Shown: positions 11,091 to 60,492 of the stretch, piece by piece | Layout: every line of letters begins with the position of its first letter | Numbering within the stretch: the first letter of the stretch is position 1 | Assembly: GCA_964464375.1 (NCBI GenBank) | Contig: CAYXFU010000016.1 | Span: 15,074 to 79,073 of the forward strand | DNA: 64,000 bases | Reading direction: 5' to 3' | Source of the DNA: an uncultured Hyphomicrobiales bacterium | Lineage (GTDB): Bacteria > Bacteroidota > Ignavibacteria > Kapaibacteriales > UBA2268 | The notes under the pieces: model-generated | The model's input: only the letters and a program-made list of their open reading frames with translations | What the model was told of the DNA's origin: nothing | Database searches by the model: none | Made by a program: the position numbers and the translations under genes

Positions 11091-11155
11091 GTCATTCCTG
11101 CACATGCAGGAATCTCGTAAAGTTAGAGAGATTCCGGGACAAGCCCGGAATGACA
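11091..11155. repeat. 65-nt hairpin repeat bounded by GTCATTC...GAATGAC (attcctgcacatgcaggaat + ttccgggacaagcccggaa)
   Basis: inverted termini and internal palindromes; member of a dispersed repeat superfamily. Confidence 0.6.
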
Positions 11156-11414
11156 CGATGATATTATTTTTCATCTATGTTATCATCTTGGTATCGGACT
11201 CAGAAATTCGTACAATTTCAGTCTAATCTAATATAATCGACAATATAAGGAATATATTGAGAGAGTGTGGAAAAAAAATCAGAATTTTTTGAATAATTTA
11301 ACCAAATTGTTCTATTGTGAATGGTTAGATGGGATTGCATCTAAAATGGATAAATATTAAACCCAGATAGTGCATTGGAACGTTTTCTATTCTTTGAAAA
11401 CGCTGTTCTGTCAT

Positions 11415-11460
11415 GTCATTCCTGCAATCACAAAGTAACAGCGAAGCTAATGCAGGAATC
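11415..11460. repeat. Partial copy of the same repeat family (gtcattcctgca...tgcaggaatc)
   Basis: shared terminus and stem sequence. Confidence 0.5.
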
Positions 11461-11581
11461 TTTTTTTGGTAAGAAAAGCATAGATTCCCGCCTTGTCTGG
11501 AATGTCATAATCAATAAATTGCAACGCCTGTATTAGCCCCCTTTTTTCAAAGGAAGTTTGGGGGTTTCTCCGGAATAATTC

Positions 11582-12256
11582 TTACTCTTTTGTTGCAATA
11601 ATCCTGTAAAAAGGAATGTTCATTTTTCGGCAGAACGTTTCTTTGTTGGTGATGGGTAATCCCCATTCATCGTCACTTTCTATAAATTTTGGGTTCAGCG
11701 ATTTAATATCTTTCAGCATCTCCAGATGATATTCATGAACTTCTTCGACATCGGTAGCAAGGAACAATCTGCCACCCTGCCTCAATACACGTATGAATTC
11801 TAGCAGAACAGGATTGTTGAAAGCTCTGCGTTTGTGGTGCTTCTTCTTGGGCCATGGATCGGGGAAAAGATAATATATTTCGTCGATAGATTCACTATTG
11901 ATGAACCCTAATCCATTCACAACGCTATACCACAGAATGCCGCAGTTAGGAATATTTTCTCCAGCGATCACTTCCTGAAGCCAGTCAACTGCACCTTTGC
12001 GAACTTCTATCCCCAAGATGTTAATTTCCGGATATGCCTCGGCAGTATCGAGCAGAAGTCTGCCCTTGCCGCAACCTACGTCTAGTCTTGATGGCGGGAG
12101 TGAATTGCTGTAAACATCCTTCCAATCAATTGATTCAATCAATGGGGGATAGAAGTTCGGCACTTCCTTCAGCTCACTCAATGGCAGATAGAGATTAGGC
12201 GATGTGTGATGCCTCATCCTGTTAGGAAGCGGATATTTTTCTGAATCTATTTTCAA
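11582..12256 (-). CDS. trmB: tRNA (guanine46-N7)-methyltransferase
   Basis: VGCGKGRLLL SAM motif and the signature FPDPWPKKKHHKRR. Confidence 0.85.
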   Translation of the reverse strand: MKIDSEKYPLPNRMRHHTSPNLYLPLSELKEVPNFYPPLIESIDWKDVYSNSLPPSRLDVGCGKGRLLLDTAEAYPEINILGIEVRKGAVDWLQEVIAGENIPNCGILWYSVVNGLGFINSESIDEIYYLFPDPWPKKKHHKRRAFNNPVLLEFIRVLRQGGRLFLATDVEEVHEYHLEMLKDIKSLNPKFIESDDEWGLPITNKETFCRKMNIPFYRIIATKE

Positions 12257-12265
12257 TATATTTAA

Positions 12266-14686: not shown

Positions 14687-14852
14687 AAAATTTGCTTAAT
14701 TAATTGATAATCATTAAAATTAAAAGATATGCAATTTACGGAAATATGGTTATTTATAAAAATTTGGTTAATCAACTCAGTTTCATATCAAAATATCCGA
14801 TAATAAATAATTATAACAGAAATTAATCGTCTGATGAAAAAAATTATTTTTG

Positions 14853-14860
14853 TAGATTTG
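14853..14860 (+). promoter_or_regulatory. Candidate Bacteroidetes-type -7 element TAGATTTG ~33 nt upstream of the 14893 start
   Basis: matches the TAnnTTTG consensus; position plausible; no further support. Confidence 0.3.
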
Positions 14861-14892
14861 TAGTGGTGCCTAATAAATAAGTTTATATTAAC

Positions 14893-15567: not shown

Positions 15568-15743
15568 TGTCTCTACAGTTATTAGCTGTAGAAACTTCCA
15601 ATATTATCAAGATAAAAAAAAGAACATGTCATTCTGATAAAACGAAGTATTTCAGGTATCTATAATACGGATTCGTTAATCAGAAATGACAAAGCAGAAG
15701 TATATTCCTGCATGAGAGATTACGTGAAAAGTCTGATTTAGAT

Positions 15744-15820
15744 GTCATTCCGAACGAAGTGAGGAATCTAGTCCGCATGAATACTAGATTCTCACGGTCG
15801 CTTCGCTCCCTCAGAATGAC
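15744..15820. repeat. 77-nt GTCATTC...GAATGAC hairpin repeat (family A, inverted orientation)
   Basis: gtcattccgaacgaagtgaggaatc...ctcacggtcgcttcgctccctcagaatgac. Confidence 0.65.
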
Positions 15821-15895
15821 AAAATCGTAGTTTTTACACAGCCGCAGGAGTAGGAATAACAAAAACATATTAATAAAATAACATTTGGAAAAAAA

Positions 15896-18145
15896 ATGAA
15901 ATTTAATAGAAGAAAAGCATTAATCTTTAATATTTGTTTGTTTGTAATAGCATTATCCTCCTTTGTATTCTCAAAAGATATTAGTGGTACAGTTTCAGGT
16001 CTTGGAGCAGACAATAAACCTGCGCCGCTGGTCAAAGCCTCGGTTCATTGGATTGGAACTTCTATCGGTGCAATTACCGATAAATCAGGAAAATTCCAGA
16101 TTGCGTCAACAAATAAATCAAACAAACTTGAAGTATCATATATTGGATACAAGAAAGACACATTGGAAGTGTCAGATTATTCTAAACCGATTGATGTCGT
16201 TTTAAAGGCCGATCTAACTCTGGACGCAATCACAGTCAATGCCGTTCAGCCTTCAAGACTTTTATCAAACAGCACCATAAAAACTGAATCAACAACATTG
16301 CGTGGCTTGCAGAAAGCTGCATGCTGTAATTTATCCGAGAGCTTTCAGACGAATCCATCTGTGGATGTGTCATTTACAAATGCAGTTACGGGTGCCAAGC
16401 AAATACAGTTGCTTGGGCTTCAGGGTGTATATATTCAAGCGCTAAATGAACAAGTTCCTTCAATGAGAGGTTTATCCGCTAATCTTGGTTTGGAATATGT
16501 ACCCGGACCATGGATGGAATCAATTCAGATATCTAAAGGATTAGCTTCTGTAGTTACTGGTTTTGAATCCATTAGCGGTCAAATGAATATCGAGTTTAAG
16601 AAACCTGAACATGAAATTCCTCTTTTCTTCAATGCATATATTAATAATATTGGGAGAGGAGAAGTAAACCTTACCTCAGCAATTAAACTTAGCGATAATG
16701 TCAGTACAATGATATTTGGGCACACAAGTTTCAATCAAGTTAAGGTAGATGATAATGCTGATTCATTCATTGATAAACCATTATCAAAGCAGTTCAATTT
16801 CATGAATAGATGGGACATTTGGGATGGTATATGGGAATCACGTACCATTATTAAAGGTCTCTATGATGAACGCAATGGCGGTCAGTCTGAATACTGGCCC
16901 AACAAGAACAACACTTTTTATGGCATGCAGATGAAGTCCCAGAAATTTGAATTCATAACAAAAAATGGATTTATTTTTCCTGAGGCTTCATATAGCAGTA
17001 TCGGGACTATCGTATCGCTCACACATTACAAAGTTGATTCATACTTTGATAAAGTGCTGTACAACGGGGAGGAAAATTCCTTGTATGCTAGAGTAATGTA
17101 TCAGTCACAACTGTTTGATTCAACTCATAAATACATGATTGGACTCAGCTATACTTCTGATAATTTTATCGAAAATCTTCAATCATTGGGCAAAACACAA
17201 CTTAAGTACTCACCCAAACTCGAATCTATACCGGGTGCTTTCATCGAATACACTTATTCAGGAATTCAGGATCTAACACTGATGGCTGGTTTCAGAGCTG
17301 ATTTTCCTAATAAATTTGCCCGTTTTCTTACTCCGAGATTTCATGCTCAGTACAGATTTGACGAAAATAATGCTATCAGGGCTTCTGTTGGGAAGGGATA
17401 CAGAATAGCAAATATTCATGCAGAAGATATCGGAATATTTGCAAGTTCCCGAAAACTGTTCATGGATGGAAAACAATCACCTGAAGAAGCATGGAATTAT
17501 GGAATGAACGCTTCAACATTGATTCCTTTGTTTGGTATCGATTTTACAGTGAATGCTGAGTTCTATAGAACGGAGTTCAAAAATCAGATTATAGTCGATA
17601 TGGAACAGAAGCAAACCGAAATGCATATCTATAACTTAAAGGGTCAATCATATTCAAATAGCTTTCAGATTGATGTGAGCGCAGAGCCGATTAATGGATT
17701 CATTATTACTACTGCTTACAGATTGAACGATGTAAAAATGACAATCAATGGTTCACTTGTCGATAAGCCGCTGCAGAGCCGTCAAAAGGGATTTTTGAAT
17801 CTTGCATATTCTACTTTCGGAGATGAATGGACATTCGACTTTACAGCAGAATACAATGGTAGCGGGAGATTGTTATCACTTGGATTCCTTGATACGTCAA
17901 TTTCAAAAGACCCATCAAATTGGATTGGCAATTCTCCGTCATTTATGTTGTATCATGCTCAGATAACAAAGAAATTCAAGAATTTTGATATCTATTTGGG
18001 CGGAGAAAATCTTTCGAATTACACACAGAAGGAAGTTATTCTTTCGCCGGATAACCCCAGAGGTCCATACTTTGATGGTGCTTTGGTTTGGGGACCGGTT
18101 ATCGGACGTATTATTTATTTAGGTATTAGATTAAGTATCAATTAA
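15896..18145 (+). CDS. TonB-dependent outer-membrane receptor (CarboxypepD_reg-like N-domain + plug + barrel)
   Basis: signal peptide; SGTVSG..KASVHWIGTSIGAITDKSGKFQI N-domain; plug motifs; 749 aa. Confidence 0.8.
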   Translation: MKFNRRKALIFNICLFVIALSSFVFSKDISGTVSGLGADNKPAPLVKASVHWIGTSIGAITDKSGKFQIASTNKSNKLEVSYIGYKKDTLEVSDYSKPIDVVLKADLTLDAITVNAVQPSRLLSNSTIKTESTTLRGLQKAACCNLSESFQTNPSVDVSFTNAVTGAKQIQLLGLQGVYIQALNEQVPSMRGLSANLGLEYVPGPWMESIQISKGLASVVTGFESISGQMNIEFKKPEHEIPLFFNAYINNIGRGEVNLTSAIKLSDNVSTMIFGHTSFNQVKVDDNADSFIDKPLSKQFNFMNRWDIWDGIWESRTIIKGLYDERNGGQSEYWPNKNNTFYGMQMKSQKFEFITKNGFIFPEASYSSIGTIVSLTHYKVDSYFDKVLYNGEENSLYARVMYQSQLFDSTHKYMIGLSYTSDNFIENLQSLGKTQLKYSPKLESIPGAFIEYTYSGIQDLTLMAGFRADFPNKFARFLTPRFHAQYRFDENNAIRASVGKGYRIANIHAEDIGIFASSRKLFMDGKQSPEEAWNYGMNASTLIPLFGIDFTVNAEFYRTEFKNQIIVDMEQKQTEMHIYNLKGQSYSNSFQIDVSAEPINGFIITTAYRLNDVKMTINGSLVDKPLQSRQKGFLNLAYSTFGDEWTFDFTAEYNGSGRLLSLGFLDTSISKDPSNWIGNSPSFMLYHAQITKKFKNFDIYLGGENLSNYTQKEVILSPDNPRGPYFDGALVWGPVIGRIIYLGIRLSIN

Positions 18146-18176
18146 TTCTATTCACATTCACATAAAGAGGTTTATA

Positions 18177-18890
18177 ATGAAAATAAATATAAGCAATTCC
18201 GGTATATTCCTTACAGTCTTAGTTATTACTATGTTCGGAATAATATCATTATCGCAGGCACAGACAGTAACTCAGCCACTTGCAGGAGTATCCACTTCAG
18301 CAAAGGTGTACACTTATACTCACATGCTTTCTCAGACTCAGAAAAAGGATATCAGATACATTATTATAAAAGCATCTAATGGCGATGTTAAGTCTTGTTT
18401 CGATGCTTGTGACGTTTGTTATCTTGCAAATAAAGGATATGTTCAGTCAGGGAATCTTCTAAGATGCAATAACTGTGGAAACACTTTTGCTATAGACGGA
18501 CTTGGATCACAAGGTGTAGGAGGATGTTGGCCCGGTCACCTTCCTCATACTCTTGATGCACAAAATGTGATCTTCACAGTTTCCGATCTTATCACCGGCG
18601 ATAAATACTATCCAACTAAAGCAGTAACAGCTGTTCAGGATGAACCTGTAAGAGAAATGGCTTTGAGCTTTAACTGGTTCATTAAATCTGATTTGCTGAC
18701 AGTCAGTATGGATAATGCAAGCGAGAGAAATATTTCCATATTCAATATTTCCGGTAAAATCTGTAAAACGCTCGCTTTTTCTTCTAATCAGATTACAGTT
18801 GATATTTCTGATTTATCTGTAGGTGTTTATTTGCTTTCGGTTGAAGAAAATGGCAGAACAACAAGTCAGACAATTGTTATTAACAGATAA
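18177..18890 (+). CDS. CxxC-x(n)-CxxC..GGCWP protein (possibly DUF2318-like metal-binding) fused to a T9SS CTD
   Basis: CFDACDVCYLANKGY..LRCNNCGNTF..GVGGCWPGH; C-terminus ISGKICKTLAF..LSVGVYLLSV. Confidence 0.45.
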   Translation: MKINISNSGIFLTVLVITMFGIISLSQAQTVTQPLAGVSTSAKVYTYTHMLSQTQKKDIRYIIIKASNGDVKSCFDACDVCYLANKGYVQSGNLLRCNNCGNTFAIDGLGSQGVGGCWPGHLPHTLDAQNVIFTVSDLITGDKYYPTKAVTAVQDEPVREMALSFNWFIKSDLLTVSMDNASERNISIFNISGKICKTLAFSSNQITVDISDLSVGVYLLSVEENGRTTSQTIVINR

Positions 18891-18924
18891 AATTTAACTA
18901 AGTCTAAAATTTGAAAGAAAAATA

Positions 18925-19581
18925 ATGAAAAAGATATATTTATACATATCTATATTCGCTTTGGTACTGTCTATGTTATTATCCGGTTGCAAAAAGGATA
19001 GTACACCTGTAGATCCAAATGTGGTTACAACTATTCCATCAATTCAAAGTTTATCTGCTGATAAGCTAGTGATAATGTATGGCAATGAGGATCATGCAAT
19101 CATCACATGCAATGCAAGCGGTGGAAATCTGAAATATACATGGGAAGTAGATCTGGGAGATATTATACCCCAAAATACTGACCGATCAAAAGTTAGTTAC
19201 ACAGGAGCCGCATGTTGTGTCGGAGAAAAGACAATAAATTGTACAGTATCTAACGATAAGGGTAGTGCAAGCAAGACAATTATTATTACTATACTGGAAA
19301 ACATTATTGTTCCGGATATTATTTCGATTGGAGTAGATAAAACTGAAATCAAGGCTGATGGCGTTGATGCCGCCAATCTTGTTTGTTATGCTATAGGTGG
19401 AAAACTCAATTACAAATGGGAAACAGATTGCGGCAACCTGACACCTGTTCCTGACGATAGCACTAGAATTACATTCACAGCTACAAATCAATGTATAGGT
19501 GATAAAACAATAAAGTGTACCGTCAGCAATGAAAAAGGGAATGTTTCCAAAACACAGGTTATCACAGTAGTTGCTAAGTAG
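18925..19581 (+). CDS. Lipoprotein with two tandem Ig/PKD-like repeats containing conserved Cys
   Basis: lipobox LLSGC; internal repeats ITCNASGGNLKYTWEVD../LVCYAIGGKLNYKWETD.. Confidence 0.5.
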   Translation: MKKIYLYISIFALVLSMLLSGCKKDSTPVDPNVVTTIPSIQSLSADKLVIMYGNEDHAIITCNASGGNLKYTWEVDLGDIIPQNTDRSKVSYTGAACCVGEKTINCTVSNDKGSASKTIIITILENIIVPDIISIGVDKTEIKADGVDAANLVCYAIGGKLNYKWETDCGNLTPVPDDSTRITFTATNQCIGDKTIKCTVSNEKGNVSKTQVITVVAK

Positions 19582-19653
19582 GTTTAGTCCATAAATTTAT
19601 TAAAACACACTTTGTCATACTTTCGCGTGCGACAGTGTAAAAACTACGATTAT

Positions 19654-19767
19654 GTCATTCTGAGGGAGCGAAGCGACCGTGAGTTCCGGAGGACTGCGAA
19701 GCACATCCAGTCTGTTTTTTTACTGTAAAAGACAAATACATGGATTCTTCACTTCGTTCAGAATGAC
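19654..19767. repeat. 114-nt GTCATTC...GAATGAC hairpin repeat (family A)
   Basis: gtcattctgagggagcgaagcgaccgtgag...cacttcgttcagaatgac. Confidence 0.65.
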
Positions 19768-19790
19768 GTCAACAATTGACTTTTTTATCC
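19768..19790 (+). terminator. Hairpin gtcaacaattgac + T6, intrinsic terminator after the 18925 gene
   Basis: stem-loop followed by T-tract. Confidence 0.5.
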
Positions 19791-19873
19791 AGTTCTTTCA
19801 CAGGAATGACAAAAAATATACTAGACACAAACTAAATTAACAAAAATTTGAAATATCAAAAGTACTCAATATC

Positions 19874-21142: not shown

Positions 21143-21179
21143 CAAAACAATGTTATCCAAGTGAATATCTATAGTTAAA

Positions 21180-22933: not shown

Positions 22934-22968
22934 GCAAGGTTCTAAGCAAAGATAAGAAAAAGATTTCA

Positions 22969-22999
22969 GATGTCCAACACCTTGAAGGTGTTGGACATC
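22969..22999. terminator. Hairpin gatgtccaacacc..ggtgttggacatc downstream of htrA
   Basis: 13-bp perfect stem; weak T-tract. Confidence 0.45.
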
Positions 23000-23008
23000 T
23001 TATCTACT

Positions 23009-23190
23009 CTAAAGCTTCACAAACTTCCCGACTCTCTCCCCAATCCTCAAAAAATACATACCCGGAGCTAAGCCTGAAACATCGACTCGTTTGGGCAATT
23101 CATGAATTGCCCCTACAGACAATACAGTTTGACCATAAACATTGATTATTTTGTAAGGGCGAACGGCCGTTCGCCCCTACGAAAATTTGT
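23009..23190 (-). pseudogene. Decayed tandem copy of the CTD 3' end of the adjacent 23361..24602 gene (..VGANGRSPLQ, frameshift, NVYGQTVLSVGAIHELPKRVDVSGLAPGMYFLRIGERVGKFVKL*)
   Basis: two-frame translation; no start codon or gene body; contains palindrome 23153..23180. Confidence 0.6.
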
Positions 23191-23264
23191 TTAGATTTAT
23201 TTTCCGTTTTCTACACACAGGTCGCTACTCCGTAGCTGAATACAAAGTACATCTATTGAACGTT

Positions 23265-23288
23265 GTCATACCTGCGTATGCAGGTATC
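23265..23288. repeat. Small hairpin of the repeat superfamily (gtcatacctgcgtatgcaggtatc)
   Basis: palindrome with GTCAT terminus. Confidence 0.45.
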
Positions 23289-23360
23289 TTTTTCCTTTGT
23301 TTGAATTGTATTCATCATGCCTTTAATCCCATAAATCCCATAAATCCCAGTTCAGACAAT

Positions 23361-24602
23361 TTATAACTTCACGAATTTACCGACTCGATCCCCAATCCTC
23401 ACAAAATACATCCCCGGAGCTAAACCGGAAATGTCTATCCGTAGGGGTAATTCATGAATTTCCCCAACAGACAATACAGTTTGACCATAAACATTGAAGA
23501 TTTTGAATTCGCTTTGTTCGGACACGGCACGCCGTGTCCCTACGGATATTTCAATGAAATCGGATGCGGGATTGGGAGAAATAGAAAAATTAAAGTCGTT
23601 AATTGTTTCTTGAATACCAGTTATACTTTTTAAACTGATTAGACTTATATATTCAGAATTACTTATAACTAAATAATTGCTATCTGATGTAAACTTAGCA
23701 TATAAAGCTCTTAGACTTGTTGATGCGATAACAGTACCATCATTAATATCCCATATTAAAATAGGATCTAAACTCCAAAATACACCTGCAACAATAAATC
23801 TATTATTAGGTGATACAGATAATGAATATACTGCGCTACTTGTTTTGATATTTCTTAATAGAGACCTGCTCTTTGTATCACATACATTAACTCCACTTGT
23901 ATTGTTATATTTAAAATAATCGCAAACAAATTTAGAGCCGTCATTATTAAATGTAGCATAATATGATGAACCCTCGTCTTTAATTACGATGGAATCAGTT
24001 TGTAGATCGGTTAATGAGGCAGGAGTAAATCTTGTTGCTACGGCTAAATATCTATCATCTTTAGAAAATTCGATAAAATTGGGTTGTTGTCTTTCCATCC
24101 ATTCACCTATCAAGCATGGATATTGTTTATAGATTTCATCAGTTTGGAAATTTCTTATAATTACGCCTTTCTCCATTAAAGAATAAGCTAAATACTTATT
24201 ATCATGGGAGAGCGCAGCATAAAATGATCCACTAGATAAATTAACCTTTATTTCTTTAACTAAAACCCATGTTTTCGTATCCCAAACAGTTAATTTACCA
24301 TAGTTTCCATCATCAGAACCAGTAGCAATGAGAAATGAACCGTCATAAGAATATTTTACAGCAAATAATGTATAATCACAGACTTTTATTTGCTTGAATA
24401 TAGTTCCAGTTAAAAGATTAACAATTCTTATTGTTCCATCTTTTCCGCTTAATGAAATAAATTTATTGTCTGGTGAGACGTCGAAATAAGAAGAAATACC
24501 AAATTCATTTCTCCAAACCACACTAGAGTCAAGTGATATTTGGCTCTTTACATTTGCAATAAAGAAGATGAAGAAGAGTAGAATAAGAATGAATTGTTTC
24601 AT
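23361..24602 (-). CDS. WD40/beta-propeller-like secreted protein with T9SS CTD
   Basis: signal peptide; C-terminus SPNPASDFIEISVGTRRAVSEQ..GMYFVRIGDRVGKFVKL; in-frame palindrome ggacacggcacgccgtgtcc at 23516..23535. Confidence 0.6.
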   Translation of the reverse strand: MKQFILILLFFIFFIANVKSQISLDSSVVWRNEFGISSYFDVSPDNKFISLSGKDGTIRIVNLLTGTIFKQIKVCDYTLFAVKYSYDGSFLIATGSDDGNYGKLTVWDTKTWVLVKEIKVNLSSGSFYAALSHDNKYLAYSLMEKGVIIRNFQTDEIYKQYPCLIGEWMERQQPNFIEFSKDDRYLAVATRFTPASLTDLQTDSIVIKDEGSSYYATFNNDGSKFVCDYFKYNNTSGVNVCDTKSRSLLRNIKTSSAVYSLSVSPNNRFIVAGVFWSLDPILIWDINDGTVIASTSLRALYAKFTSDSNYLVISNSEYISLISLKSITGIQETINDFNFSISPNPASDFIEISVGTRRAVSEQSEFKIFNVYGQTVLSVGEIHELPLRIDISGLAPGMYFVRIGDRVGKFVKL

Positions 24603-26306: not shown

Positions 26307-26609
26307 TTAAACCTCGTAATCGCAGGAATGTGTTACTTCGCGCACCTTGTTAAGGAATTCGACGACAGCAACATGAGCCGGATGCTTAGTATATAAATCC
26401 AGATCTTCCCAATTGTCATAATCAGCGAGAATCGAAAGATCATAAGCTCTCGGTGAATCGAGCTGATTGATTCCCACTTCGAAGCTTTTGATTGTTTCGA
26501 TTTGTGCAGGTAAAGCTCTTAGCATTGTTGCGACAAGCTGCACATTCTCGGCTTTTGATCTGCCGTCAGCTTCATCGTAGAATTTTATCATTATTATGTG
26601 TCTTATCAT
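26307..26609 (-). CDS. Dabb-family stress-responsive A/B-barrel protein
   Basis: ~100 aa; MIRHIIMIKF..HPAHVAVVEF pattern. Confidence 0.55.
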   Translation of the reverse strand: MIRHIIMIKFYDEADGRSKAENVQLVATMLRALPAQIETIKSFEVGINQLDSPRAYDLSILADYDNWEDLDLYTKHPAHVAVVEFLNKVREVTHSCDYEV

Positions 26610-26648
26610 GATATATCTTGATATATTTATTAATAGTAAAATTCATTC

Positions 26649-26790
26649 GTCATTCAGAGCGCAGCGAAGAATCCATGTATTTGTATTTTCTTGTAAAAAC
26701 AGCCTGGATTCTTCAGTCGCAGTGCCCCTTCTGAAGGACAGCGATTCCGTCATTCTGAACGAAGTGAAGAATCCATGTATTCATACTATT
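26649..26790. repeat. Composite of two family-A hairpin units; first 64 nt repeated directly at 27189..27252
   Basis: gtcattcagagcgcagcgaagaatccatgtatttgtattttcttgtaaaaacagcctggattct. Confidence 0.65.
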
Positions 26791-26828
26791 GCTAGATTCT
26801 TAGTACCGATTCCTCAAAAAGACAGCCA

Positions 26829-27116
26829 CTAATACCACTCTTCACTTAAATCATTCCAATTAGGATTATTACCTTCAATCAATTTAATTTTTTTTACTCT
26901 TGAATATCCTTTAATATGCTTTTCTCTGACAATAGCAGATTCAATATTTCCACAGTCTTCAAGGAATACTAGTTGATGAACAGAATATTTGGAAGTAAAA
27001 CCTTCAAATAAATTATTTTTATGTTCATAGACTCTTTTTAATAAATTAGATGTTACACCTGTGTAAAGTGTTCCATTTTTTTGCGAAGCCATAATATATA
27101 CAAACCCGTTTTTCAT
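26829..27116 (-). CDS. GIY-YIG nuclease-superfamily small protein
   Basis: GFVYIMASQKNGTLYTGVTSNLLKRVYEH (GIY..YIG motif), 95 aa. Confidence 0.7.
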   Translation of the reverse strand: MKNGFVYIMASQKNGTLYTGVTSNLLKRVYEHKNNLFEGFTSKYSVHQLVFLEDCGNIESAIVREKHIKGYSRVKKIKLIEGNNPNWNDLSEEWY

Positions 27117-27140
27117 TCATTTTTTTTTATTGATGATAAA

Positions 27141-27280
27141 TACATGGATTCATCAGTCGCTTCGCTCCTTCTGAATGACAGCCATTTCGTCATTCAGAGC
27201 GCAGCGAAGAATCCATGTATTTGTATTTTCCTGTAAAACAGCCTGGATTCTCACTGTCGCTCCGCTCCTTCTGAATGACA
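27141..27280. repeat. Composite family-A hairpin repeats; contains the direct copy of the 26649 segment
   Basis: sequence identity to 26649..26712. Confidence 0.65.
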
Positions 27281-29100: not shown

Positions 29101-29140
29101 TACATAGATTCTTCAGTATCTACGCTACCTCTGAATGACA
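29101..29140. repeat. Partial family-A repeat arm (tacatagattcttcag...ctctgaatgac)
   Basis: matches the right arm of the GTCATTC..GAATGAC repeats. Confidence 0.5.
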
Positions 29141-35548: not shown

Positions 35549-35660
35549 TCTATTTCCTAGGGTTTGCACGCTCAGTTAATCAGATTCAGCCGCTTTGTGG
35601 CAGAAAAAAATATTAAGGCACTTGATTCTCCACTTCGTTAAGAATGACAGAAAAGGCAAC

Positions 35661-36209
35661 ATGGGAACAGCACTACTAATAATAGATATTCAAAACGACT
35701 ACTTCGATGGTGGAGCTAACCCTCTTGTCGATTCTGAAAAAGCGTGCATCAATGCGCGTTTGATTCTCGATGCTTTCCGTGAGGATGGAATGCCGGTAAT
35801 CTTCGTACAACATATATCTAATCGACCAGACTCAACATTCTTTCTGCCATGCACTTTTGGTGCTGAGATCCATCGCGTTTTAACTCCAATTGGTAATGAA
35901 ATGGTAATCACCAAGAATTATCCAAACAGCTTCAAGAATACAGATCTGCTTGAATATCTGAGAGCAAACGAAATACATAACCTGATAATCTGCGGTATGA
36001 TGACTCACTTATGCATAGACTCAACCGTAAGAGCCGCTAAAGATCTTGGGTTTAACTGCACTCTGATCGGTGATGCCTGCGCTACAAAGAATCTGGAGAT
36101 TAATGGACAGTTGGTCATTGCAGAAGTAATACAGAACAGCTTCCTTGCTGCACTTAACGGATTTTATGCAACAGTGATCAAAACTGAAGAATATTTGGGT
36201 GGAGAGTAA
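35661..36209 (+). CDS. Isochorismatase-family hydrolase (second paralog); start moved to M at 35661
   Basis: MGTALLIIDIQNDYF..IICGMMTHLCIDSTV; the 35595 extension would translate through a repeat arm. Confidence 0.65.
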   Translation: MGTALLIIDIQNDYFDGGANPLVDSEKACINARLILDAFREDGMPVIFVQHISNRPDSTFFLPCTFGAEIHRVLTPIGNEMVITKNYPNSFKNTDLLEYLRANEIHNLIICGMMTHLCIDSTVRAAKDLGFNCTLIGDACATKNLEINGQLVIAEVIQNSFLAALNGFYATVIKTEEYLGGE

Positions 36210-36364
36210 AAGCAATGAACAATTTAGATAAATCTGAAATAATCAACACACTTGACTCAATCACAAACCGGTGGCTGGAGTTATCAGAAAAGTTGTGAAG
36301 TAGCTGATTACCGTCATAAGCGATAAATACATGCCAAGCACCAAAACCAACTCCGGCAATCAGA

Positions 36365-36410
36365 GAGTGAATTAATACATTGCAATTTGCGAAATGGGAG
36401 GGAATCATGG
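36365..36410 (+). repeat. Second copy of the 40-nt AATTAATACATTGCAATTTGCGAAAT motif
   Basis: identity to 2083..2125. Confidence 0.5.
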
Positions 36411-36516
36411 CATGAATACTATATTGCCACATTTTCTACAAATCCTTATGGGATTATTATAAAACTTCCGAGAAAACCCAAACCCCTTTGAAAAAGGGGG
36501 CTAATACATTCTTTGT

Positions 36517-36672
36517 AAATCAATGAATAGCCACGAGCTTTAGCTCGTGGTGAAAAGAAAAAATGATTTTATTTGGGGATTTATCCCCACAAAAAGAGTG
36601 ATTTCGACTAAAGTCAATGAAAATAATTAGGAATCTTCCACGAGCTAAAGCTCGTGGCTATTGATTCCATCA
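36517..36672. mobile_element. MITE-like element: ~33-nt terminal inverted repeats (each containing the palindrome ccacgagctttagctcgtgg) flanking a ~90-nt AT-rich core with hairpin ggggatttatcccc
   Basis: caatgaatagccacgagctttagctcgtgg at 36517.. and its reverse complement at 36640..36672; no ORF. Confidence 0.4.
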
Positions 36673-49445: not shown

Positions 49446-49536
49446 GTCATTCTGAGGGAGCGTAGCGACCGTGAGAATCCAGACTGTTTTACAAGAAAAT
49501 GCTAATACATGGATTCCTCACTTCGTTCGGAATGAC
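49446..49536. repeat. 91-nt GTCATTC...GAATGAC hairpin repeat (family A)
   Basis: gtcattctgagggagcgtagcgaccgtgag...cacttcgttcggaatgac. Confidence 0.65.
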
Positions 49537-49666
49537 CTCTTAAACAGACTTTTCATACAGGCTCATTTGCATGAATGAAGAATTTACTTACAGACTAAAG
49601 CTAATAATATAATTTGCGATTTCAATAATAATTCATTAAATTTGATAAAACAAAAGAAATGTACAA

Positions 49667-49984
49667 ATGGTTAAAATCCCTGAAGAAATAGCAGATAAAA
49701 TCAAAAGATTTATTGATTTGCTCGAGAAATCTCAAATTCACATCGAGCAGGCAATTCTTTTTGGATCTTATGCTAACGGCACCCAGAATAAATGGAGTGA
49801 CATCGATCTGGCTTTAGTCTCTTCGAATTTCGAAGGGAATAGATACTACGATTTAGACAAACTGACAGATGCTCAATTCATGGTTGATACTGATATATCG
49901 CCATTACCCTACCGACCGGAAGATTTCACAAATGATGATCTATTCGTAAGAGAAATTAACAAAAGTGGAATCCGAATCGTATAA
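49667..49984 (+). CDS. Nucleotidyltransferase-domain protein (MNT-type antitoxin-like), no adjacent HEPN partner
   Basis: LFGSYANGTQNKWSDIDLALV (GS-x9-DxD). Confidence 0.7.
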   Translation: MVKIPEEIADKIKRFIDLLEKSQIHIEQAILFGSYANGTQNKWSDIDLALVSSNFEGNRYYDLDKLTDAQFMVDTDISPLPYRPEDFTNDDLFVREINKSGIRIV

Positions 49985-50441: not shown

Positions 50442-50491
50442 AACATACTCATAGATTATTCAGTTAGTTATAAGACACATATATTGAGTTT

Positions 50492-50998: not shown

Positions 50999-51196
50999 AA
51001 TTCTCCTGAATATGCTTATTCAATTATTCAAATAACTCAAATTTATTGAAATGATGTCTGCGTAACTATTTTATTTTATTTCAAATCTATTTGGGAAGAG
51101 ATTTCAATTTACATTTACTTTTTTTGTGATTTATACTTAATTTGTCTTTTTCCCAATGAACAAACCAAATATTAATATTATTATAAGGAGTAGAAA

Positions 51197-51856: not shown

Positions 51857-51960
51857 TTAATAAAATCTTGATAAATGAAAACCTAATCCAATTCAGGTAA
51901 AGGACAGGCTATAATCGATTATTGAGTTTATAAAAAATTCAGATTATCGAATACGAAGCG

Positions 51961-52007
51961 TGGCTAATGCAGGAATCTCGAAAAACCAGAGGAGATTCCT
52001 GAATATA
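51961..52007. repeat. Hairpin of the repeat superfamily (gcaggaatctc..gagattcctg) between convergent genes, probable terminator
   Basis: 10-bp stem. Confidence 0.45.
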
Positions 52008-52020
52008 ATTTTGGAATTTT

Positions 52021-52680: not shown

Positions 52681-52734
52681 TTTTAATCCCTTATTTTTAT
52701 ATAATTAATTTAAGAACTCACAGTTCAGACTACT

Positions 52735-52988
52735 TTACAGCTTTATAAACTTTCCGACTCTGTCCCCAGTCCTCACAAAATACATTCCAGGAGCCAAACC
52801 GGAGACATCGATTCTTGCTTTTTCCTCTCCTTTCCAAGGAGGGGTGTCACGATTGCGAAGCAACGGCGAAGCCCACTCCGGGGTGGTCTTGATTTCTCCA
52901 AGAACATTATATATCATCACCTCGCTTGTAAGGGCGAAGGACAGTTCGCCCCTACGGAAATTTCTATAAAATAAGAACTAGGATTGGG
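52735..52988 (-). pseudogene. Stand-alone frameshifted T9SS CTD cassette (..TPNPSSYFIEISVGANCPSPLQAR* then MMIYNVLGEIKTTPEWASPLL..GMYFVRTGDRVGKFIKL)
   Basis: two-frame translation gives a complete ~80-aa CTD with no gene body; ~150 nt near-identical to the 3' end of the 53712 gene; palindrome at 52927..52954. Confidence 0.6.
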
Positions 52989-52996
52989 AGTGACAA

Positions 52997-53308
52997 TTAA
53001 TTAATATCAATTCCGGTTCTCAGAATTTCCTGAATAAAAGGATCCCCTTTATAAAAATATTCAGTTGGGAATGTTTGTGCATCAATATCGAGATAGTTTT
53101 TTGTTATAGGTGCTATCATTAGAGCATTTTCGAATCTGTCACTCGTGAATTGACTTGAAACTAATGCCAGATCGATGTCTGTATTATCATTGTTTATATC
53201 TTTGGCAAGAGAACCAAAAAGAATTACCCGATCGAAAACCAAGTTGATTTTTCGGCATTCATCGATAAACTCCTTTGTTATATCTATTGCATTTTGTCTA
53301 GTAAGCAT
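52997..53308 (-). CDS. Nucleotidyltransferase (MNT antitoxin)
   Basis: ILFGSLAKDINNDNTDIDLALV. Confidence 0.7.
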   Translation of the reverse strand: MLTRQNAIDITKEFIDECRKINLVFDRVILFGSLAKDINNDNTDIDLALVSSQFTSDRFENALMIAPITKNYLDIDAQTFPTEYFYKGDPFIQEILRTGIDIN

Positions 53309-53676
53309 TTTCTGATTTCACCAGCTTTTTGAATTAATTCTTTTGTTTTTTCTGTGGTTGTTGTTTTGTAAATATTGCCCAAATAGTCGGGATATCGACC
53401 TTCCAGATTATAGACGTTGAATGCCTTTAGAAAAACAATCATATCGTCATCAAATTCAATATTAGTAAAAGATAAAAGTTTCACAATATCATGCGTTTTG
53501 GGAGGATAAATTTCATCAGTAAATCGTACATATATTGCTTTACTGATTTTTTCCATTGTCAAATGAACAAAAAATAATGCTTGTACAAATTTCCCGCCAT
53601 CCAATAATAAGGTTACTGATTCCCAGTCGCTTTGAGCAGAATCAATCCAATACGCAATATGTTCCTGTTTTGTCAT
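53284..53676 (-). CDS. HEPN-domain protein (toxin partner of MNT)
   Basis: size and helical pattern; 25-nt overlap with the NTase gene. Confidence 0.6.
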   Translation of the reverse strand: MTKQEHIAYWIDSAQSDWESVTLLLDGGKFVQALFFVHLTMEKISKAIYVRFTDEIYPPKTHDIVKLLSFTNIEFDDDMIVFLKAFNVYNLEGRYPDYLGNIYKTTTTEKTKELIQKAGEIRKCLLDKMQ

Positions 53677-53711
53677 ACTCGGTATACGAATATTTTCAAC
53701 TTATATTATTT

Positions 53712-54950
53712 TCAATATTTTATAAACTTCCAGATCTTATCCCCAATCCTCACGAAATACATACCCGGAGCCAAACCGGAGACATCGATTCTTGCTTTTT
53801 CCTCTCCTTTCCAAGGAGGGGTGTCACGATTGCGAAGCAACGGCGAAGCCCACTGCGGGGTGGTCTTGATTTCTCCAAGAACATTAAAGATTCTTATCTC
53901 AACAGATGGACTCCACTTGGCAAGTGGAGCCCATCTTGCCAAGTCGATTTCTATAAAGTCCGTGGCGGGATTAGGGAAAATATAATTATCTTTAACATTA
54001 ATATTATCATCAAATCCAGATTGTAGTGGTGAAGTTGCAACAACCAGATTATCGATCCACATAGTCTGTTCAATGGGAGAGCCATCGCCAATATAGGGAG
54101 CAATCAGGAACTGATTGAGCTTCATATCGGGGAATTGTGCTGTTCTGAATATAATATTATCATAACTTATCAAAATCTTGGAATCGTACCAGTATCTGAT
54201 CTTCCCGTCAGTAACTCCTTTACCGCCTTGAATACTATTCAGCTTAAAATATGCTTCCACATGATGCCAGTCATTCTTGTAGTTGAGTCCCTGTGCGTCT
54301 GTGAAATAAACTGTGTCGGCATCCCATATTCTTGCACTATAATAGTATCCACCGCCATAGTTGAAGCAATCGCTTCTATCGAAACCACCCTCGATACCAT
54401 TGCATGCGGCTATGGAACGATTCTCGGAGAACTTATAGCTATTAAAATCTCCATCGCAGCCGATAAAATTACCGTTGTTCTGCAAGATACACGTCTGATC
54501 TACATTCTTGCTGTCCTGAAGTGCAAGCAGGGGCTTACCCTCATTCTGTTCGATATATAAAGTTAGATGAGTGATTGCCGGACCGACATATTTATCATCA
54601 GCATTTGTCATAATATTAAATTCATGAGGATGATACGGCTTGTTCGAGCCTTCCCAGTTTGCACTATACTTCACCCAATAGCTTACGTAGAGTTCATCTG
54701 TTTCGGTGAACAGATGACGGCTGGGGGTCCCTGCGGCGCATCCTCTCTGCCCCTGCAGGAATTTACACTCGAAGCAGGCAGTACTCCCATTGATATGCTC
54801 AGCCGTTGAAATTGTCCCTTTAGACGCATCGTACCACCCACGCAAAGCAAAGTCATTATCATCAAAATTCTCAATAAAGAGAATGGTTTGAGCTAATAGA
54901 GCTACAAAACCAAAAGTGCTTATAAACAATATGATGAATAATGTTCTCAT
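53712..54950 (-). CDS. Secreted protein with T9SS CTD carrying two in-frame hairpins (WAPLAKWSP palindrome 53907..53931; cctctcctttccaaggagggg 53801..53821)
   Basis: signal peptide; C-terminus FPNPATDFIEIDLARWAPLAKWSPS..NVLGEIKTTPQWASPLLRNRDTPPWKGEEKARIDVSGLAPGMYFVRIGDKIWKFIKY. Confidence 0.55.
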   Translation of the reverse strand: MRTLFIILFISTFGFVALLAQTILFIENFDDNDFALRGWYDASKGTISTAEHINGSTACFECKFLQGQRGCAAGTPSRHLFTETDELYVSYWVKYSANWEGSNKPYHPHEFNIMTNADDKYVGPAITHLTLYIEQNEGKPLLALQDSKNVDQTCILQNNGNFIGCDGDFNSYKFSENRSIAACNGIEGGFDRSDCFNYGGGYYYSARIWDADTVYFTDAQGLNYKNDWHHVEAYFKLNSIQGGKGVTDGKIRYWYDSKILISYDNIIFRTAQFPDMKLNQFLIAPYIGDGSPIEQTMWIDNLVVATSPLQSGFDDNINVKDNYIFPNPATDFIEIDLARWAPLAKWSPSVEIRIFNVLGEIKTTPQWASPLLRNRDTPPWKGEEKARIDVSGLAPGMYFVRIGDKIWKFIKY

Positions 54951-54963
54951 AGGCTTTTCAACT

Positions 54964-57900: not shown

Positions 57901-60093
57901 TAAATTTTTAAATCTAAGATTTTTATTGGAAGAAATTCCAGGAGTAAGATATATTTGACTGAATTTTGTTACAAAACCATCATGTTGACCTTTTAGGGAA
58001 GTTTGAAATGCACCTGCTGTAACTGGATAATCATGGGAAAGGGTTGAGCCAGTGATATAAATATCATTCTTATTATCAATACAAATAGATGTTCCATACT
58101 CTCTATATGAACCAGAAATAAATGTTGAATAACTGAATTTTGAATCATTAAAATTCAATTTAAATAAAAAACAATCAGAGTAATAAGTCAATGGAGTAGT
58201 TTGATAAGCACATTGAATTATTGGGAAATCGTCAGAGATTGTATATCCTGTGATATATGGATTTTTCTCTGAATCCAATGCAATTGACAACCCATAATCA
58301 TCTTTTGAGCCACCTACAAAAGAAGAATATAAAATACTTGTGCCGGTATTATTGAATTTGGTGATAAAAGCTTCATTCATTTTCTTTTGTGTGGGTTGAA
58401 ATGAACCAGGTGTAGTTGGAAAATTAGGAGAAGCGGTACTTCCGGTGACAAAGGCATTTCCATTATTATCAACAACTACACCTGAAATTTGATCTGTACC
58501 TGAGCCACCAAGATAAGATGAATACAAAGCATCTGTGCCAGTTTGATTTAATTTAGTAATGAATCCGTCATGAGACCCACCGGCATAATTTATCTGAAAA
58601 GCTCCGGTTGTAGTAGGATAATCAGTAGTAGAAGTGTAGCCAGCAATATAAGCACATCCAAACGAATCAATTGTTAAGCTCAGCACAGATAGCCAATTTA
58701 ACAAAGATACCCCTAATTCTCCACCTAGAAATGTTGAATATATTAAACTTGTGCCTGTTGAATTACATTTAACTACGAACAAATCTGAAGAATTTCTTAA
58801 TGTTGTACGATAAGCACCGGAAGTAGTTGGAAAATCACTTGATAATGTTCCTCCTGTTATATATGAATTACCTGCAATATCTACAGATATGGAATTTCCC
58901 CAATCATCATTCAAACCGCCTAAAAAGGTTGAAAAAAGTAATGTAGAACCAGTAGAATTAAGCTTAGTAATAAATGCTTCAGTACCATTCCTTGTTTGGC
59001 GTAAAGCACCATTTGTTAAGGGGTAATTATCCGACCAGGTCGTACCAGTCATGTAAACATTTAAATTAGAATCGATTGCTAAACCTGCTCCCTCTTCTAC
59101 ATCATTACCACCGATAAATGTTGAAAATATAGGATATGTACCATTTACATTCATTTTTGTCACAAAATAATCAGCTATTACTCCTTTTGATGTATCAATA
59201 TTCGTTTGATATGCTCCTACTGTTGTTGGAAAATCTTTTGAATCGCTCTCTCCGCAAATATAAGAATTTGAATTTCTATCCACTACAATCCCATGTGGAA
59301 AATCTGGTCCAGATCCACCTAAATATGTAGAATACACCATTGGGTCAATTATCAAAGCTAAATCATGATTATAATCATCGATTTTGAAAGTGGCGGTTCC
59401 ATCGTAATTTAAAATAAAGCGGCAATCAACTTTGGTGCCTTCAGCAAGACTAAGCAATGCTTTGGGTTGATAAGCATAGATTTTATTATTGAGAACATTT
59501 CCTATGCTTGTACCAATAACCAATTCACCATTTTCATTGATTGCAAGGTTGTTCTGTCCTTCAAATTTCATCTTAATTTGAGATATATCTGCACCGGGAC
59601 TGACAATATAATCATATCTCAAACCAGCTAAAGTTTGTCCTTCTGTAGTTTTTGTATCAAAATAATATCTAATATCTATACCCTGATAAGCATCCTTTAC
59701 GATTACTTCTTTATACAGAGGCACAAATGAAGCCCATTTTGTAGAATCATTACCAATAAAGTAGTTATAATAAGTCTCCAGTTTTTCTTTGGTTAGATTA
59801 GTGCAGCTCTCATTTAAACCATCATATTTTAACCCAACAACATGACCTTTCAAAAACTTGTCTTCTATCTTGTTAAAGTCATAAACAACGCCGCTTTTGG
59901 TTATCCAGGCATTTATTCCATTCATCTTAGCAAGGAATTGTACTTCAGGATTCCACTGTCCTTTGTTTTCAATGAAGGAATTTGAATTGTTGATCTTTGA
60001 CAGGGTAGTCTCATCCATGCCGGTAAGCACAAGAGATGGATAGATGCAAATTAACAGGCAAATAAACAGATTTCTCATTTTCCGCCTCAGCAA
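54964..60093 (-). CDS. Giant (1709 aa) secreted adhesin-like protein: SBBP beta-propeller repeats + multiple Ig/PKD-like domains + T9SS CTD
   Basis: repeated ..GGSGxDxxxGIAVD..NVYVTGxTxSxDFP.. units; Cys-containing Ig-like repeats; C-terminus LVSGVYFVRIATSVQKFIKL. Confidence 0.7.
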   Translation of the reverse strand: MLRRKMRNLFICLLICIYPSLVLTGMDETTLSKINNSNSFIENKGQWNPEVQFLAKMNGINAWITKSGVVYDFNKIEDKFLKGHVVGLKYDGLNESCTNLTKEKLETYYNYFIGNDSTKWASFVPLYKEVIVKDAYQGIDIRYYFDTKTTEGQTLAGLRYDYIVSPGADISQIKMKFEGQNNLAINENGELVIGTSIGNVLNNKIYAYQPKALLSLAEGTKVDCRFILNYDGTATFKIDDYNHDLALIIDPMVYSTYLGGSGPDFPHGIVVDRNSNSYICGESDSKDFPTTVGAYQTNIDTSKGVIADYFVTKMNVNGTYPIFSTFIGGNDVEEGAGLAIDSNLNVYMTGTTWSDNYPLTNGALRQTRNGTEAFITKLNSTGSTLLFSTFLGGLNDDWGNSISVDIAGNSYITGGTLSSDFPTTSGAYRTTLRNSSDLFVVKCNSTGTSLIYSTFLGGELGVSLLNWLSVLSLTIDSFGCAYIAGYTSTTDYPTTTGAFQINYAGGSHDGFITKLNQTGTDALYSSYLGGSGTDQISGVVVDNNGNAFVTGSTASPNFPTTPGSFQPTQKKMNEAFITKFNNTGTSILYSSFVGGSKDDYGLSIALDSEKNPYITGYTISDDFPIIQCAYQTTPLTYYSDCFLFKLNFNDSKFSYSTFISGSYREYGTSICIDNKNDIYITGSTLSHDYPVTAGAFQTSLKGQHDGFVTKFSQIYLTPGISSNKNLRFKNLVCENSELDSIWVKNTGGCDLIISNSNPSGINFTDFSLISPALPIIIPYGDSAKFVISFKSSISGNKSANLNLINNSPKSPFSIALNAVKDSISFKLSGLRFNTLDFGIVCPNSVKDTIFNIENKSTIGTKFSFNDLKSPFSYVSGNPSSVQFNANETKAIKVRFTAPADTGTFTQFIDVYDSCGRNKVVVLVAKVIGPKIEAGKDTTICYGSSIFIGNLAKSGTPPYRYKWNPTEGIVDPDSAITLVSPEKTTKYILTVTDSAGCSKSDSLFVRIHQKINISAGPDIDICTNATIDLKGQLSGGVQPIQSILWTPSKGLDNPNSITPKLTLDTNGKFQYILCVIDNAGCSRCDTVEVNVLPAITIDISGDSLICDGINSKLKVMPPNDAYKYLWSNGSTASEIDIDKAGTYWVKVSINGSCEVYDTLVVQSYPKISPKLKLSRNPELCAGSKLNISTEDKYTAYNWSTGNTEDNITVNLPGNYYVEVTDINGCKAISDTVKVTLVDSLKPIVIISNNGILCPNGSLNLTTEYNYTSYLWNTGETTKSITITKPGKYSVHVKDDGGCEGTSEIIDIIQVAEPKPIISGDLFLCPGRTSILLVQNDFQSYLWNTAETTKSISISNPGIYSVTVTDTNGCEGTATTTITEFKPDVIQLTDIDFGTRKVNSTSKKNIELKNTNTQQVTIFSIKIKGLEANTFTAKPTPVPPKTLAQNESINIEIDYLPTDSKSYLDSLIIDITEPCVQSLLIAVKGSASDSIKTQISTSVWIPDMSAKIGQLNFCIPLMAKKDDNEPYDDKVSYKAVITLDASVMNPTTNKGTIVSGKRTIELIGDNIQLTENPTKIGEICGQIFIGDRDITPIEIINFEWSDKDIINKITNGSIKVSGICQPNIARIQLINPVEFTITENPVIDELNIVFAKGFEIDEGLSFEIYNIYGKKINLTTTLSILVEGVKIDVSGLVSGVYFVRIATSVQKFIKL

Positions 60094-60174
60094 GATAATA
60101 GAATTGTATTATTCAAATTTAAAATTATTATTATTATAAAGCAAGTTTATTTAGTGAGGAGTGAATAGTTTGGA

Positions 60175-60492
60175 ATACATAGATTCCTCACCTACGGTTC
60201 GGAATGACGAAGGGGCTGTCATTCAGAAGGAGCGTAGCGACTGAAGGAATCCAGGCTGTTTTCTTCGAGAAAAATACAAATACATGGATTCCTCATTTCA
60301 TTCGGAATGACGGAATGGCTGTCATTCTGCGGGAGCATAGTGACTGAAGGAATCCAGGCTGTTTTTTTACAGAGGGAATACAAAATACATGGATTCCTCA
60401 CTATGTTCGGAATGGCAAAAAGGCTGTCATTCAGAAGGAGCGTAGCGACTGTAAGTTCCGAAGGACTGCGAAGCGCATCCAGGCTGTTTTTT
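60175..60492. repeat. Tandem array of three ~104-nt units of the GTCATTC...GAATGAC hairpin repeat
   Basis: gtcattc begins at 60218, 60321 and 60425; each unit carries gtcattc[at]g[ac]..gagcgtagcgactg..ggaatccaggctgtttt and tacatggattcctca..ttcggaatgac arms. Confidence 0.7.

Follow-up and report, generated by a model that had tools for sequence, protein, structure and literature searches.

A 64 kb stretch of contig CAYXFU010000016.1, from an uncultured Kapaibacteria relative of the Bacteroidota/FCB group, carries short dispersed repeats that begin with GTCATTC and end with GAATGAC and, between two of them, an intact gene for a small GIY-YIG nuclease. This stretch, referred to here as the window, has a GC content of ~37%, with 15% of its length outside the main open reading frames (ORFs). 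The gene (26829..27116, minus strand) is a homolog of ssnA and encodes a single-domain protein of 95 aa, in which PF01541 (E=1.8e-13) spans residues 4-74 and no other domain was matched.

Directly upstream of this ssnA homolog lies a repeat arm of a type termed L (27147..27179, minus strand), which reads GTCATTCAGAAGGAGCGAAGCGACTGATGAATC on the sense strand of the gene, and directly downstream lies an arm of a second type, R (26749..26781, plus strand), inverted with respect to the first. The two arms bound a cassette of 431 nt, SRM-ssnA-SRM (26749-27179), SRM being the Ssn-related motif discussed below. Each side of the cassette is occupied by a gene-less L..R doublet, of 91 nt on the upstream side (27189..27279; fold of -23.8 kcal/mol, z -7.1) and of 90 nt on the downstream side (26649..26738), and these doublets are direct repeats, ~90% identical. 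Read along the ssnA strand, a doublet and a 9-nt linker precede the L arm, 31 nt separate this arm from the ORF, 47 nt separate the ORF from the R arm, and a second 9-nt linker and doublet follow; the linker that joins the doublet 27189..27279 to the cassette is GAAATGGCT. The nuclease gene sits inside one L..R element, which is itself inside a small array. An earlier note on this stretch had listed 26649..26790 and 27141..27280 as separate sites; the repeats are present at both, but the 350 nt between them encode the nuclease, which had been overlooked. In the cassette the ssnA stop codon runs straight into GGCTGT(C)TTTT, a motif that in the doublets comes immediately after the L arm, and this position fits doublets as cassettes that lost their gene; the gene-less doublets appear, on this comparison, to be cassettes without it.

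Number and anatomy of the repeat arms

The dispersed GTCATTC...GAATGAC hairpins first described in the earlier note are real. The pattern GTCATTC-N(5-45)-GAAT[CG] finds 19 strict arms in the window, where 200 dinucleotide shuffles average 1.37 and reach 6 at most, GTCATTCTGAG with at most one mismatch has 11 matches where 1.34 are expected (a number reached in 0/100 shuffles), and ATTCCTGCA has 10 where 0.74 are expected. Every site listed in that note is present, at the coordinates it gave or within a few bases of them. Counting degenerate copies, there are ~23 arms at ~12 intergenic sites in 64 kb, which take the form of solo arms, inverted doublets of 77-114 nt and one tandem array, and the copies are 63-98% alike over aligned stretches. 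The avoidance of coding sequence was also seen correctly, since 22/23 arms lie outside the main ORFs and the sole exception overlaps only the TTG-start extension of ORF 35595-36209. The density of copies, which had been called unusual, is ordinary for an SRM system, for which genomes with more than 200-300 such motifs have been reported (PMC11893778).

All 19 strict arms end in C (GTCATTC...GAATC), although the pattern permitted C or G. An arm is an oriented site, with GTC at its 5' end, a palindrome running from ATTC(C/T) to (G/A)GAAT, and a final C. Reading of the sites together with a repeat finder distinguishes two arm types in family A, L (GTCATTCTGAGGGAGCGAAGCGACCGTGAGAATCC) and R' (GTCATTCTGAACGAAGTGAAGAATCC), and a family A doublet combines one L arm with one inverted R arm. 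Family B consists of small, strong hairpins. As single-stranded DNA (ssDNA), the family A doublets fold into one long imperfect L:R hairpin, with z of -3.5 to -7.1 except at 19654-19767 (-1.75), and the family B doublet into two separate small hairpins. As read in the sequence, family A arms share one design: inside an outer ATTC(T)/(A)GAAT stem come tandem G.A/A.G mismatches and then two base pairs, capped by a GNA triloop (C-GAA-G, or GCGAAGC in the L arm). The oligonucleotide d(GCGAAGC) is an unusually stable DNA mini-hairpin.

SsnA genes and their arms in other bacteria

Starting from 20 aligned homologs (A1), 80 loci were recovered in named genomes of nearly all bacterial phyla, at 52-68% protein identity. 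The association of gene and termini holds across 84 homologous genes and was counted in loci L005-L086 with the motifs GTCAT[TC][CT] and [AG][GA]ATGAC. Within 300 nt of ssnA genes these terminal heptamers occur at 5.28/kb, compared with 0.69/kb elsewhere in the same loci; a terminal motif stands upstream of 76 of the 88 ssnA genes, downstream of 70 and on both sides of 66. Orientation is also biased, arms being mostly sense upstream (102 vs 34) and mostly antisense downstream (85 vs 50). The flanks of the homologs read GTCATTCC-stem-loop-stem-GGAATCCAG, 5-30 nt, the gene from ATG to stop, and then CTGGATTCC-stem-loop-stem-GGAATGAC. Two ssnA paralogs, only a few kb apart and each with its own pair of arms, are found in a Bdellovibrionales metagenome-assembled genome (MAG) (L011, 1258-1536 and 3735-4001) and in an Anaerolineae MAG (L017, 5001-5276 and 8988-9263), and multiple cassettes per genome therefore occur. 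The SsnA ORF of locus L005 and that of the Chloroflexota homolog P0020 continue into the R arm, which gives both proteins the tail '..LDSSLRSE'.

The stem sequence varies between genomes while complementarity is kept: a perfect stem of at least 7 bp is present in 95/139 arms, with 22 distinct stem sequences. Among 36 distinct 25-nt arms, 98.6% of cells are paired, double compensatory changes occur at 4/8 pairs and single-sided changes number 0, a level of covariation reached by 0/500 shuffles; the pattern by which arms were picked constrains the outer pairs, and the inner pairs, which hold most of the covariation, are unconstrained. The compensatory changes are double Watson-Crick changes only, with no G-T intermediates.

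The window protein shares 52-75% identity with homologs of many phyla whose genes have the same termini on their flanks, and 58-62% with homologs flanked by arms of the exact NTS consensus defined below, such as that of L033 (GTCATTCCCGCGAAGGCGGGAATCCAG). An identical 95-aa protein is encoded on 7 contigs, all of them JGI/NCBI metagenome contigs, and the closest named relatives come from Candidatus Kapabacteria MAGs (74-75% identity). The residues that are invariant across the homologs of alignment A1 are kept in the window protein, including Y7, Y18, R28 and E65; by inference, Y7, Y18 and E65 would match Y6, Y17 and E64, mutated in the published work (PMC11893778).

The arm class and the protein subclade co-vary. 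Family A arms accompany 8/9 proteins that bear the C-terminal signature IKG[WFY]xRxKK..LI[ED]S.NPxWxDLSxxW[YF], and 0/75 of the rest (Fisher p = 2e-10). All nine signature proteins fall into one neighbour-joining clade of 11 among 85 sequences, and the other two members of this clade also have non-canonical arms. The clade has spread horizontally, as it includes proteins of Kapaibacteria, Hyphomicrobiales, Chloroflexota, Cloacimonadota, Chitinophagaceae and Sedimentisphaerales. The family A R arm is found on at least 120 metagenome contigs (GC 32 to 70%), mostly far from any ssnA gene; among the matches listed, an ssnA gene is present at 6/120 R-arm loci and a partner terminus lies within 140 nt of 50/125 R arms. 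On one metagenome contig (L104, Ga0307486_1050566), positions 1-1188 hold four tandem units of ~194 nt with a family A R arm at the end of each, a longer period than that of the array in the window.

Probable assignment to the Ssn system and competing explanations

The NTS/SRM-SsnA system was described by Chenal et al. (2025, Nat Commun 16:2388; PMC11893778), who showed that the dRS3 palindrome of Neisseria, ATTCCC-N8-GGGAAT, belongs to a longer, oriented motif, NTS (CGTCATTCCCGCGMAVGCGGGAATCYRG), of which SRM is the generalised form, and that in many phyla NTS flank ssnA, a 94-aa GIY-YIG gene (NMB0047, CDD cd10448). The NTS hairpin is bound by SsnA as ssDNA only, with no action on double-stranded DNA (dsDNA), RNA or the opposite strand, and the enzyme cuts one strand, a few nucleotides upstream; cutting requires the three bases (GTC) that precede the palindrome, and binding requires the C that follows it (PMC11893778). 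Deletion of ssnA raises transformation with NTS-bearing DNA about five-fold (PMC11893778). The authors note the insertion-sequence-like layout and an analogy with repetitive extragenic palindromic (REP) sequences, their associated tyrosine transposases (RAYT) and bacterial interspersed mosaic elements (BIME), and leave the role outside Neisseria open (PMC11893778). A search of the literature on GIY-YIG proteins with REP-like repeats or with repeats like miniature inverted-repeat transposable elements (MITE) returned nothing relevant, and it was a search with the repeat sequence that led to the Ssn paper, to which no follow-up papers were found.

It is highly probable that the repeats of the window are SRM and that their partner is the SsnA-family nuclease encoded at 26829-27116, because this ORF sits between an L and an inverted R arm with doublets on both sides. 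On most features, the window repeats and gene fit the published description. Both systems have a single-domain GIY-YIG protein of ~95 aa, a gene bracketed by inverted, oriented GTCATTCC..GGAATC hairpins, many further intergenic copies and a wide phyletic spread; the window arms have GTC(A) 5' of the palindrome and C 3' of it, and family B arms come near the canonical NTS. The palindrome core ATTCC(C)-N8-(G)GGAAT is shared with the Neisseria dRS3 repeats (defined in PMC11893778), although family B has ATTCCT-N8-AGGAAT or longer stems and family A lacks a clean 20-bp palindrome. Family A departs further from the published arms, with purine-rich, mostly non-Watson-Crick segments carrying GCGAAGC/CGAAG in place of the GC-rich stem, a fold that is best as one long L:R hairpin, and a distinct protein subclade. 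The host also differs, being the Kapaibacteria relative named above rather than a proteobacterial symbiont. Among stand-alone GIY-YIG proteins, the Slx1-like/UPF0213 group (PDB 1zg2, 1ywl) shares the minimal domain without accessory domains, but its sequence relationship to the window protein is distant, and Dunin-Horkawicz et al. (2006) report no repeat association for it (PMC1564403).

By homology with the Neisseria and Wolbachia enzymes, an arm would fold when DNA becomes single-stranded, as in incoming transforming or conjugative DNA, on the lagging-strand template or in repair intermediates, and SsnA would bind the folded arm in one orientation only. Its nick would then fall a few nucleotides 5' of GTC, on the GTCATTC..GAATC strand, dsDNA and RNA not being acted on; for a doublet or cassette this would place both cut sites just outside the ends, on opposite strands. 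The cassette has the layout of an insertion sequence, the doublets of 77-114 nt look like gene-less cassette ends, comparable to MITEs or to REP doublets (REPINs), and tandem doublets form mosaics like those of BIME or of the Neisseria intergenic mosaic elements (NIME). By analogy, the window protein probably cuts the window arms as ssDNA. In the host the system may serve selfish spread, ssDNA restriction that modulates the recombination of incoming DNA, or both.

Several observations weigh against this assignment. The published SRM search pattern, HGTCWYN(0-2)YYVSBRHN(0-5)WNVSBRGN(0-2)RNCYNB, has 0 matches in the window on either strand; it matches 44/84 ssnA loci within 300 nt, and is a search tool rather than a definition. 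Single arms of family B fold at -6.5 to -8.0 kcal/mol, whereas family A arms alone are poor Watson-Crick hairpins (-0.1 to -3.5 kcal/mol) under nearest-neighbour parameters that give no credit to tandem G.A pairs or GNA triloops. Given the missed pattern and the poor hairpins, recognition may differ from that of the Neisseria enzyme, and since a single ssnA is visible for at least three arm types, family B may need a second paralog elsewhere. Among solved structures the sole sequence match of the window protein is the distant 1zg2 (E=0.003), and no NCBIfam model reaches its cut-off, a match to group I intron endonucleases remaining below it. Window copies give no signs of recent movement, and four independent metagenome contigs of the same population match the window at 99.97-100% identity, with zero indels. 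To our knowledge, moreover, a GIY-YIG nuclease alone has no strand-joining activity.

Since they have no indels relative to the window, the same-population contigs, compared for the insertion polymorphism that the earlier note proposed to test, are uninformative on mobility; variation does appear among relatives found through the neighbouring LOG-family gene. In one of them (L090, LOG protein 77% identical) 11 nt separate LOG from Dabb and the element is absent; in a second (L087, LOG protein 89% identical) the spacer is 159 nt and holds exactly one doublet between the same flanks; in the window it is 685 nt and holds doublet, cassette and doublet. The L087 doublet matches the upstream doublet of the window in its left flank and left arm, and the downstream doublet in its right flank, so that a single recombination event between direct-repeat doublets, or the reverse integration, separates the two states. 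The comparison of this site shows gain or loss, though neither its direction nor its mechanism. No target-site duplication was found at five window doublets or at the L087 copy, and the doublet flanks contain no clean target sequence.

A stronger version of the assignment would make cassette and doublets a true family of transposable elements mobilised by a GIY-YIG ssDNA nuclease, with the window as a separate clade that reads purine-rich (G.A/GNA) hairpins instead of a GC stem, and with the three states of the LOG-Dabb site as a record of recombination at resident doublets. This extension is tentative and rather unlikely as a whole; we know of no prokaryotic insertion sequence for which a GIY-YIG ssDNA nuclease has been established as the mobilising enzyme.

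There is little likelihood that the repeats act at the level of RNA, as transcription terminators, mRNA-stabilising hairpins or small RNAs. REP-like hairpins affect mRNA stability in other bacteria, copies in the window stand at gene ends, and one variant (23268-23287) is a stem followed by a T-run. In a scan of 11-30 kb for a GC-rich stem with a T-run this variant is, however, the only repeat that qualifies as a terminator, no family A arm or doublet there having a T tail, and the intrinsic terminator reading was rejected. Rfam gave 0 matches at gathering score and 4 weak matches at E<=1 in the window, none of which overlaps the repeats. Copies also occur in both orientations relative to neighbouring genes, the stems covary without wobble intermediates, and the characterised SsnA does not bind RNA (PMC11893778). 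The suggestion of a small-RNA or terminator family in the earlier note fails on the Rfam result, on the single T-run (23268-23287) and on the lack of G-T intermediates.

Still less probable is that the repeats are REP or REPIN elements mobilised by a RAYT, that is an IS200/IS605-like Y1 HUH transposase, whose gene would lie elsewhere in the genome. The two systems are alike in their short palindromes, inverted doublets, intergenic position and BIME-like arrays, and they further share a nuclease acting on hairpin ssDNA and a gene flanked by inverted sites with gene-less doublets. The repeat-flanked gene, on the other hand, is GIY-YIG and not Y1, both in the window and in the 84 homologous loci, and the arms start with GTCA instead of a REP head of the GTAG type. 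Y1 transposase Pfam families are absent from the called genes on contigs that overlap the window at ~1-21, 17-37 and 39-56 kb (~55 kb, with the last ~8 kb outside). The chemistry would also differ, hydrolytic nicking by GIY-YIG standing against covalent transesterification by HUH-Y1, and no strand-transfer activity is known to us for Ssn. The REP/MITE-like character proposed in the earlier note holds for the architecture (inverted arms, gene-less doublets, BIME-like arrays, intergenic position and presence/absence), but the RAYT or IS200-like partner expected there does not: the partner is the SsnA-family gene within the repeat cluster.

An origin of the repeats as ordinary MITEs of a DDE-type insertion sequence, with the GIY-YIG gene as a passenger or a homing endonuclease that landed there, is equally improbable: doublets do have terminal inverted repeats and relatives do vary in presence and absence, but target-site duplication is absent at the five doublets and the L087 copy, the called genes on the overlapping contigs include no transposase, and the link between gene and arm across phyla at 52-68% identity, with co-variation of arm class and clade, is unlike a passenger. 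The REP/RAYT, terminator or small-RNA and DDE-MITE readings fail because each misses a defining test. A phage origin is unlikely, ssnA relatives being found at only 3 loci in 2.9 million viral contigs.

Individual sites, neighbouring features and significance

Two family A doublets bracket a TonB-dependent receptor operon (15896-19581; bracketing segments 15744-15863 and 19611-19767), inverted and with their L arms facing the operon. The first (15744..15820, 77 nt, L arm towards the TonB-receptor operon) has a DNA fold of z -4.3, and a decayed copy in the form of a degenerate hairpin, GTCATTCTGAT..ATCAGAAATGAC, lies at 15628..15691. The second (19654..19767, 114 nt) has an insert of ~28 nt in its L arm and a weak DNA fold (z -1.75), with an extra GAATGAC beyond it at 19804-19810. 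Over another 25-40 nt of flank the two are also alike (73 nt, 88% complementary), and the arrangement resembles the NTS-gene-NTS order reported around Neisseria membrane-protein genes. Three doublets, including one of 91 nt at 49446..49536 (DNA fold z -3.5), have ~40 nt conserved past the R arm (19768-19810, 49537-49578 and 15700-15743), ending in another GAATGA(C)/GCAGGAAT half-site, which indicates that the true units are mosaics larger than the GTCATTC..GAATGAC span.

Solo arms of family A are L-like at 29107..29139 (minus strand) and of R type at 35624..35648 (minus strand), the latter just upstream of the probable ATG (35662) of an isochorismatase gene. The tandem array at 60174..60492 is a mosaic of R / L..R / L..R / L, the last with an insert, with a period of ~105 nt and with conserved 9-nt linkers GRAAKGGCT between its units, namely GAAGGGGCT, GGAATGGCT and AAAAAGGCT. 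NIME are mosaic repeat arrays with short intervening segments, as is this one. The mechanically called ORFs 60219-60536 (minus strand, 105 aa) and 26596-26832 (plus strand, 78 aa) lie wholly in repeat arrays and are almost certainly not genes.

Family B is represented by a doublet at 11091..11155, whose two small inverted hairpins of the ATTCC..GGAAT, canonical NTS type, ATTCCTGCA..TGCAGGAAT and ATTCCGGG..CCCGGAAT, fold separately (-15.4 kcal/mol, z -5.2), and by a site that the earlier note had placed at 11415..11460, which is present but extends to 11506 as a doublet, one arm having a 27-nt loop and the second being degenerate (..GGAATGTC). A solo variant on the plus strand, GTCATACCTGCGTATGCAGGTATC (GTCATACC..GGTATC), followed by the T-run, lies at 23265..23288, and its ATACC/GGTAT form also flanks ssnA in L043. 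The family B site given as 51961..52007 exists as well, but only as a decayed internal fragment (..TGCAGGAATCTCG..GAGATTCCTG..) that has lost both GTCATTC termini.

The neighbours of the repeats in the window are ordinary chromosomal genes, comprising pheS/pheT, rplT, rpmI, adk, genes for cargo proteins of the type IX secretion system (T9SS), toxin-antitoxin pairs and flagellin; a tRNA/tmRNA scan of the window found none. Several toxin-antitoxin-like pairs stand near repeat sites: the nucleotidyltransferase gene at 49667-49984 adjoins a called HicA-toxin gene, 52997-53676 holds a HEPN/nucleotidyltransferase pair, and a RelE/MqsA pair is found at ~2.5 kb. Upstream of rpmI, beside the solo arm at 29107-29139, the segment 28860-29100 contains short unrelated hairpins (CTCTCCCGCTAGGGAGAA, TACCGTCCCTTCGGGACGGCA and others) and AATCC-type repeats. 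Two further intergenic repeats, unrelated to the arms, have two copies each: a direct repeat (2058-2116 and 36343-36401; 59 nt, 86% identical) and an inverted one (11508-11553 and 36484-36529; 46 nt, 76% complementary).

Perfect in-frame palindromes also occur in the repeated segments that encode T9SS C-terminal sorting domains (4761-5010, 22960-23230, 23347-23580, 52690-53000 and 53698-53990; also 2142-2240), where GTAGGGGCGAACGGCCGTTCGCCCCTAC encodes 'SVGANGRSPLQ' and GGGCAATTCATGAATTGCCCC encodes 'GAIHELP'. Three of the tail copies (2142-2240, 22995-23213 and 52721-52990) are orphan or frame-broken fragments outside long ORFs. Either a second hairpin element with insertion into coding sequence or a cassette system of T9SS tails could account for these repeats.

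The Ssn system itself is already published; what is new here is the miss of the SRM pattern, the tie of family A arms to a distinct SsnA subclade and the three states at one site. The window extends the Ssn/SRM system to an uncultured lineage of the Bacteroidota/FCB group. For annotation, the repeats account for a common class of spurious small ORFs, 60219-60536 among them, and for odd protein C-termini like '..LDSSLRSE'. Counts made with the published search motif are too low for the system, as the arm class GTCATTCTGAGCG../..CGAAGTGAAGAATC, common in metagenomes with GC of 32 to 70%, is invisible to it. The pairing of this arm class with a protein subclade provides candidate enzyme/site pairs with new ssDNA specificities, which the Ssn authors seek for ssDNA tools, and the three-state LOG-Dabb site offers a concrete locus for asking how cassettes are gained or lost.

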